Source of the DNA: Escherichia coli
GTDB taxonomy: Bacteria > Pseudomonadota > Gammaproteobacteria > Enterobacterales > Enterobacteriaceae
Assembly: GCF_003019035.1 (NCBI RefSeq)
Contig: NZ_CP027447.1
Direction: 5' to 3' (one strand)
Length of the DNA: 64,000 nucleotides
The notes under the pieces are model-generated. The model was not told where the DNA came from and did no database searches. It worked only from the letters and a program-made list of their open reading frames with translations. This document shows positions 30,125 through 30,559 of this stretch, in pieces. The position numbers and the translations under genes were made by a program. Position 1 is the stretch's first letter; the number at the start of each line of letters is the position of its first letter.

Positions 30125-30559
30125 GTGAAAAGTACCAGCGATCTGTTCAATGAAATTATTCCATTGGGTCGCTTAATCCATATGGTTAATCAGAAGAAAG
30201 ATCGCCTGCTTAACGAGTATCTGTCTCCGCTGGATATTACCGCGGCACAGTTTAAGGTGCTCTGCTCTATCCGCTGCGCGGAGTGTATTACTCCGGTTGA
30301 ACTGAAAAAGGTATTGTCGGTCGACCTGGGGGCGCTGACCCGTATGCTGGATCGCCTGGTCTGTAAAGGCTGGGTGGAAAGGTTGCCGAACCCGAATGAC
30401 AAGCGCGGCGTACTGGTAAAACTTACCACCAGCGGCGCGGCAATATGTGAACAATGCCATCAATTAGTTGGCCAGGACCTGCATCAAGAATTAACAAAAA
30501 ACCTGACGGCGGACGAAGTGGCAACACTTGAGCATTTGCTTAAGAAAGTCCTGCCGTAA
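30125..30559 (+). CDS. marR: MarR repressor (GTG start, 144 aa)
   Basis: Full-length MarR; compared with the K-12 sequence as I recall it, differs at residues 53, 103 and 137. Confidence 0.95.

Follow-up and report, generated by a model that had tools for sequence, protein, structure and literature searches.

In clinical isolates, an altered marR typically carries a single substitution that shifts the minimum inhibitory concentration (MIC) only slightly and costs little fitness; in PMC5890708, marR mutants have a ciprofloxacin MIC of 0.023-0.06 mg/L, compared to 0.015 mg/L for the wild type. A triple allele, A53E/G103S/Y137H, was published in 2016 from the Escherichia isolates E23, E34 and 26N (GenBank KT825948-KT825955; PMC5177599). 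These isolates have a ciprofloxacin MIC of 256-512 µg/mL and also carry gyrA S83L/D87N, and the triple allele was listed without a functional test. Here we analyzed the marR gene in a stretch of 64,000 nucleotides of Escherichia coli DNA (contig NZ_CP027447.1; hereafter the window), the product of which is identical at the protein level to the published allele and to RefSeq WP_022645711.1. The allele A53E/G103S/Y137H is already known, being both catalogued and published; no measurement of its effect, including that on marA transcription, was found in the literature searched. We propose that this intact MarR most likely bears a neutral or near-neutral lineage polymorphism.

End-to-end alignment of the window MarR with wild-type E. 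coli MarR (PDB 3VOE) revealed differences only at residues 53, 103 and 137. Compared to MG1655 (NC_000913.3), the gene has three nonsynonymous changes, at nucleotides 158 (C>A, position 30282 of the window), 307 (G>A, 30431) and 409 (T>C, 30533), in addition to three synonymous changes at nucleotides 207, 210 and 360. A preliminary description of this DNA had named exactly these three residues, together with the motifs CAECIT, TTSGAA and LEHLL, and all three motifs are found in the protein. The protein reaches 318.4 bits with the NCBIfam equivalog NF008565 (MarR of Enterobacteriaceae), for which the curated cut-off is 240 bits, with residues 1-144 aligned on profile positions 1-144, and the MarR-type winged helix-turn-helix domain (Pfam PF01047) covers residues 38-96 with 68.9 bits. 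Six solved E. coli MarR chains match the protein with E-values from 1.9e-91 to 2.8e-83. In a 28-sequence alignment of the family, all 47 invariant columns, such as D67, G69, R73, R77, R86 and R94, are kept in the window MarR. The marR of the window is probably a normal, functional repressor gene.

The distribution of the three substitutions was analyzed over 5,426 complete E. coli genomes with probes of 55 bases centred on the variant base, in which every 28-base seed word must include the variant. At least 4,222 of these genomes have Ser103, and at least 4,220 have His137, which makes both the majority state of the species, at no less than 78% of the complete genomes. The expectation that G103S and Y137H are widespread was therefore well founded, and K-12, with Gly103 and Tyr137, is the minority or outlier within E. 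coli.

The Glu53 probe matched 86 of the 5,426 complete genomes, every match being exact. Among them, 85 share the synonymous background of the window (G207/G210), which belongs to the phylogroup-F marR of sequence type (ST) 648 and its relatives. Ala53 on the same G207/G210 background occurs in 121 genomes, including the phylogroup-F references IAI39, SMS-3-5 and CE10, so that Glu53 is the derived state within phylogroup F. The carriers of Glu53 come from humans (including a healthy student), dogs, pigs, chickens, wild birds and a dolphin, and one of the strains is named ST648. In all eight Glu53 genomes retrieved, the annotated MarR is WP_022645711.1, and the exact protein of the window is found on at least 1000 contigs in a collection of 15 billion proteins. 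Such a predominance of one background over diverse hosts corresponds to inheritance by a whole lineage, not to isolated events in resistant strains. An artefact of sequencing or assembly is ruled out as the source of Glu53 by the same 55-mer in 86 independent complete genomes and by the recurrence of the protein on this many contigs.

The remaining carrier of Glu53, strain 2017.04.03CC (NZ_AP025205.2), isolated from a human in Thai Binh, Vietnam, carries C158A in a marR otherwise equal to that of K-12 (gene at 2857-3291 of the retrieved locus), with only 4 differences from K-12 over 3,180 nucleotides. The K-12-type A53E protein (RefSeq WP_229266305.1) is found on 8 contigs. We had considered a single origin of Glu53 as the simplest reading and rejected it on account of this genome; A53E on the K-12-like marR of 2017.04.03CC would most simply represent a second, independent origin. 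Other residues are also found at this site in E. coli: A53S (codon TCG) is a natural allele carried by 19 of the 5,426 complete genomes and encoded on at least 1000 contigs of the large collection, and A53V, A53T and A53P occur at low counts.

Analysis of 92 representative MarR orthologues, of 68-100% identity, revealed that the three substituted positions are the most variable of the protein. Position 137 ranks first of 144 with an entropy of 2.59 bits, position 53 second with 2.52 bits, and position 103 third with 2.40 bits. Column 53 is composed of V27, G27, A16, E10, T6, S3, K2, Q2 and I1, two of the ten Glu being the query and its copy in the database. The MarR of Buttiauxella and other genera natively has Glu at position 53, and the adjacent column 52 is often Glu or Gln. 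Columns 52 and 53 of the 28-sequence alignment lack a majority residue, in contrast to all other positions of the N-terminal half. The second rank in variability and the native Glu elsewhere speak against residue 53 being required for DNA binding, dimerization or folding.

In the AlphaFold2 model of the window MarR (mean predicted local distance difference test score of 80.9, and ~91-92 for residues 41-60), helix 2 spans residues 40-52, followed by a loop (53-56), helix 3 (57-64), the recognition helix (68-80) and the wing strands (84-88 and 96-100). Residue 53 opens the loop that follows helix 2. MarR's DNA-binding region comprises residues 55-100 and the dimerization regions residues 10-22 and 123-144, as given in PMC5890708; by these boundaries, residue 53 lies two residues before the DNA-binding region and outside both dimerization regions. 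Its placement at the edge of the winged-helix region in the preliminary description is borne out by both the model and these boundaries. Residue 53 is absent from the salicylate-site residues given in PMC11591804, and papers citing the MarR-DNA structure 5H3R yielded salicylate-site residues only and no list of DNA contacts. The main text of PMC5890708, a study of 36 reconstructed marR alleles, makes no mention of A53, G103S or Y137H.

Comparison of positions 28000-31300 with complete genomes gave a 100% match to one genome only, SCU-301, the next best being 99.3%. The base identity to SCU-301 extends over positions 1-49100 (49.1 kb, including the mar locus), followed by eight clustered single-nucleotide polymorphisms (SNPs) in the 557 nucleotides of 49101-49657, near a truncated ydfJ. 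Beyond 49657, to position 64000, the tail region of a lambdoid prophage is ~94-96% identical to SCU-301, with indels. By these matches the window appears to come from SCU-301 or a very close relative; that it is SCU-301 itself holds only in part, as positions 1-49100 are identical and the prophage variant differs. SCU-301, recorded from the rectal swab of a healthy college student, was typed as phylogroup F, ST967 (PMC11251922). Its resistance phenotype is given as "-", without even an "intermediate" flag, and its entry names neither resistance genes nor chromosomal mutations conferring resistance (Table S1, PMC7407071). The disk-diffusion panel of that study comprised ampicillin, cephalothin, gentamicin, kanamycin, streptomycin, chloramphenicol, nalidixic acid, norfloxacin, azithromycin, tetracycline, sulfamethoxazole and trimethoprim. 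The phenotype of SCU-301 argues against a marked Mar phenotype.

The Glu53 allele appears to reside in a short recombination tract. From the marC-marR spacer (last mismatch at 29971) to an island junction on the right, the 1.24 kb marO-marRAB haplotype has no mismatch to seven ST648-type Glu53 genomes, whereas the flanks diverge from the same genomes by ~1.1-1.6%. IAI39 differs from the window in this tract at five positions (29990, 30008, 30282, 30891 and 30986). The island at 31216-37500 (6.3 kb, between marB and eamA) encodes a 6-phospho-beta-glucosidase, a carbohydrate porin, the IIA, IIC and IIB components of a phosphotransferase system (PTS) together with a GntR-family regulator. The window, SCU-301, IAI39, SMS-3-5, MEW and W46 have this island, and K-12 and all seven sampled ST648-type genomes lack it. 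When a 24 kb query containing the island was compared with the 5,426 genomes, approximately 2,500 of them covered 80% or more of it. Because the tract is free of mismatches while the flanks diverge and the presence of the island differs, the haplotype is held by two chromosomal backgrounds, ST967-like and ST648, and homologous recombination would most simply account for its presence on both. Such recombinational sharing is common in E. coli and alone is no evidence of selection. The divergence of the flanks, ~1.1% from the seven ST648-type genomes, together with the best match to SCU-301, also led us to reject the window as an ST648 strain.

Taken together, we propose that MarR of the window would bind sites I and II of marO and keep marRAB off until it is released by an inducer such as salicylate or copper, and that its three differences from K-12 represent standing natural variation. 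Glu53 is a derived marker of the phylogroup-F marRAB haplotype, carried by ST648 and relatives and here by an ST967-like strain. The short loop that joins helices 2 and 3, in which residue 53 sits within C51-x-x-C54, is hypervariable, and the two middle positions of that stretch vary freely among orthologues. Glu at 53 should therefore be tolerated with repression retained, and repression would be quantitatively unchanged by the allele.

An alternative, in line with the preliminary suggestion that Glu53 could weaken repression of marRAB, is that A53E derepresses mildly and at low cost: one more negative charge beside the winged-helix domain would slightly lower the affinity for marO, and the slightly raised basal expression of marA and AcrAB-TolC would give a stepping-stone advantage under antibiotics. 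The location of residue 53 just ahead of the DNA-binding region agrees with this, as does the typical clinical marR allele described in PMC5890708, a single substitution of small MIC effect and low cost; furthermore, ST648-type carriers include at least one multidrug-resistant strain (SCU-120), in a lineage prone to drug resistance. Several further observations tell against neutrality. C158A recurs on the K-12-like background of the Vietnamese human isolate, and recurrence can signal selection. The first isolates reported with the triple allele were highly ciprofloxacin-resistant, though with gyrA S83L/D87N (PMC5177599), and a haplotype common to ST967-like and ST648 chromosomes across divergent flanks is compatible with recombinational spread. 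Disk-diffusion categories are blind to MIC shifts of 2-4-fold, which are what marR mutants typically show, and the window may not come from SCU-301 itself, as the adjacent prophage differs. Nevertheless, we consider mild derepression unlikely, and a weakening of marRAB repression by Glu53 is not supported. Site 53 is the second most variable of the family, with Glu native in Buttiauxella and other genera, and Ser, Val, Thr and Pro are also accepted there in E. coli. The allele marks a lineage, with 85 genomes on one background, instead of arising sporadically in resistant isolates, and it is found in commensal and wildlife isolates. For SCU-301, base-identical at this locus and over the surrounding 49 kb, no resistance phenotype is on record, and the resistance of the published carriers is accounted for by gyrA, parC and plasmid genes. 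Still less probable is an extended version in which Glu53, as a very mild and nearly cost-free derepressor, was fixed in ST648, moved as the 1.2 kb marO-marRAB tract into or from the ST967-like strain, and arose again on a K-12-like background.

A different effect of the same substitution can be envisaged through the CxxC-like sequence C51-A-A-C54, in which CAAC becomes CAEC: A53E might alter the redox or copper response of MarR, thereby affecting induction and not basal repression. In other protein families, redox behaviour is tuned by the residues between the two cysteines of a CxxC motif. However, among 94 MarR orthologues C51 is present in 82 and C54 in 70 (Ser in 19), so these cysteines are not conserved, and columns 52-53 lack a majority residue. 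Copper sensing by MarR has been assigned to Cys80. As both cysteines are dispensable in orthologues, an effect through C51-x-x-C54 is highly improbable.

If the allele is the near-neutral lineage polymorphism that we favour, it matters little for biology; it is of use for annotation, since comparison with K-12 only makes common natural variants of marR resemble resistance mutations. The identical 1.24 kb marO-marRAB tract in ST967-like and ST648 chromosomes, with flanks ~1% apart, is of modest population-genetic interest. Should Glu53 truly be a mild derepressor, it would bear on the acquisition of resistance by the ST648 lineage, and in the extended version above it would act as a "pre-resistance" variant at the level of the lineage and help to explain the ready multidrug resistance of ST648.

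The gene context is that of the MarR equivalog, with a divergent marC followed by marO and then marR-marA-marB (Table 1). The sequence from 30013 through to the GTG of marR has no difference from K-12, and the cognate operator sites I and II, which overlap the -35/-10 and the ribosome-binding region, are present. The operator sites had been described beforehand as canonical, and indeed the marbox, the promoter and both sites have the K-12 sequence. The names and sequences of these elements follow the established description of marO and the legend of Fig. 1 in PMC5890708.

Table 1. Features of the mar locus in the window, with comparison to K-12.
Feature	Position	Strand	Description
marC	29248..29913	-	divergent neighbour; protein as in K-12, 19 synonymous differences
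marO-marRAB haplotype	29972..31215		1.24 kb, 0 mismatches to seven ST648-type Glu53 genomes
marO control region	30026..30123	+	base-identical to K-12
marbox	30026-30045	+	identical to K-12
-35	30062-30067	+	identical to K-12
MarR site I	30070-30089	+	identical to K-12
-10	30085-30090	+	identical to K-12
MarR site II	30104-30123	+	identical to K-12
marR coding sequence	30125..30559	+	GTG start, 144 amino acids; intact MarR repressor, allele A53E/G103S/Y137H
codon 53	30281..30283	+	GAG (Glu), K-12 GCG (Ala); single C>A at 30282
codon 103	30431..30433	+	AGC (Ser), K-12 GGC (Gly)
codon 137	30533..30535	+	CAT (His), K-12 TAT (Tyr)
marA	30580..30963	+	0 nucleotide differences from K-12; NCBIfam NF008564, 294 bits
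marB	30995..31213	+	4 amino acid differences from K-12 (S5L, P27Q, V28F, H44Q); matches NCBIfam equivalog

The only SNPs of the marC-marR spacer relative to K-12 are at 29940, 29995, 30008 and 30012, all upstream of the marbox. The region that they occupy presumably holds the marC promoter and an accessory Fis site. Immediately upstream of the ribosome-binding site of marA, in the spacer between marR and marA, the window has a run of seven A (~30562) compared to six in K-12, and the extra A is also found in IAI39, SMS-3-5, MEW and W46. The MarB protein is WP_000803527.1, as in the ST648-type genomes and IAI39. The complete identity of marA to K-12 stands beside 19 synonymous differences in marC and six differences each in marR and marB; at position 30891 within marA, the window has the K-12 base and the phylogroup-F Ala53 strains differ. 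Farther from the locus, the annotation of SCU-301 places hipB-hipA at ~1384-2972 on the minus strand of the window and an intact 5.4 kb autotransporter gene of the ECSE_1600 family at ~3183-8603. In the strain named ST648, this autotransporter gene is annotated as frameshifted, and a nearby fimbrial gene contains IS2.

Compared to K-12 MarR (NP_416047; PDB 3VOE, 1JGS and 5H3R), the window protein shares 141 of 144 residues, with an identical marO control region and an identical marA, and differs in having Glu53, Ser103 and His137 in place of Ala53, Gly103 and Tyr137. The Ala53 allele with G103S/Y137H (WP_000843419.1), found in the phylogroup-F strains IAI39 and SMS-3-5 and also in MEW, has the same background at nucleotides 207 and 210; these strains share the MarA protein, the operon and the canonical operator with the window, but have Ala instead of Glu at residue 53. 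The ST648-type genomes with WP_022645711.1 have a flank without the PTS/porin island, in contrast to the ST967-like flank with the island in the window. The A53S allele of E. coli resembles the window allele as a natural substitution at the same residue on a Ser103/His137 background, yet introduces Ser, not Glu, and belongs to a different lineage or lineages. The low-cost marR alleles of Praski Alzrigat et al. 2017 (PMC5890708), from ciprofloxacin-resistant clinical isolates, likewise have a single substitution near the DNA-binding region of an otherwise intact MarR; in isogenic strains, however, those alleles increased both marA expression and the MIC of ciprofloxacin, whereas A53E is a lineage-wide substitution at a hypervariable site.
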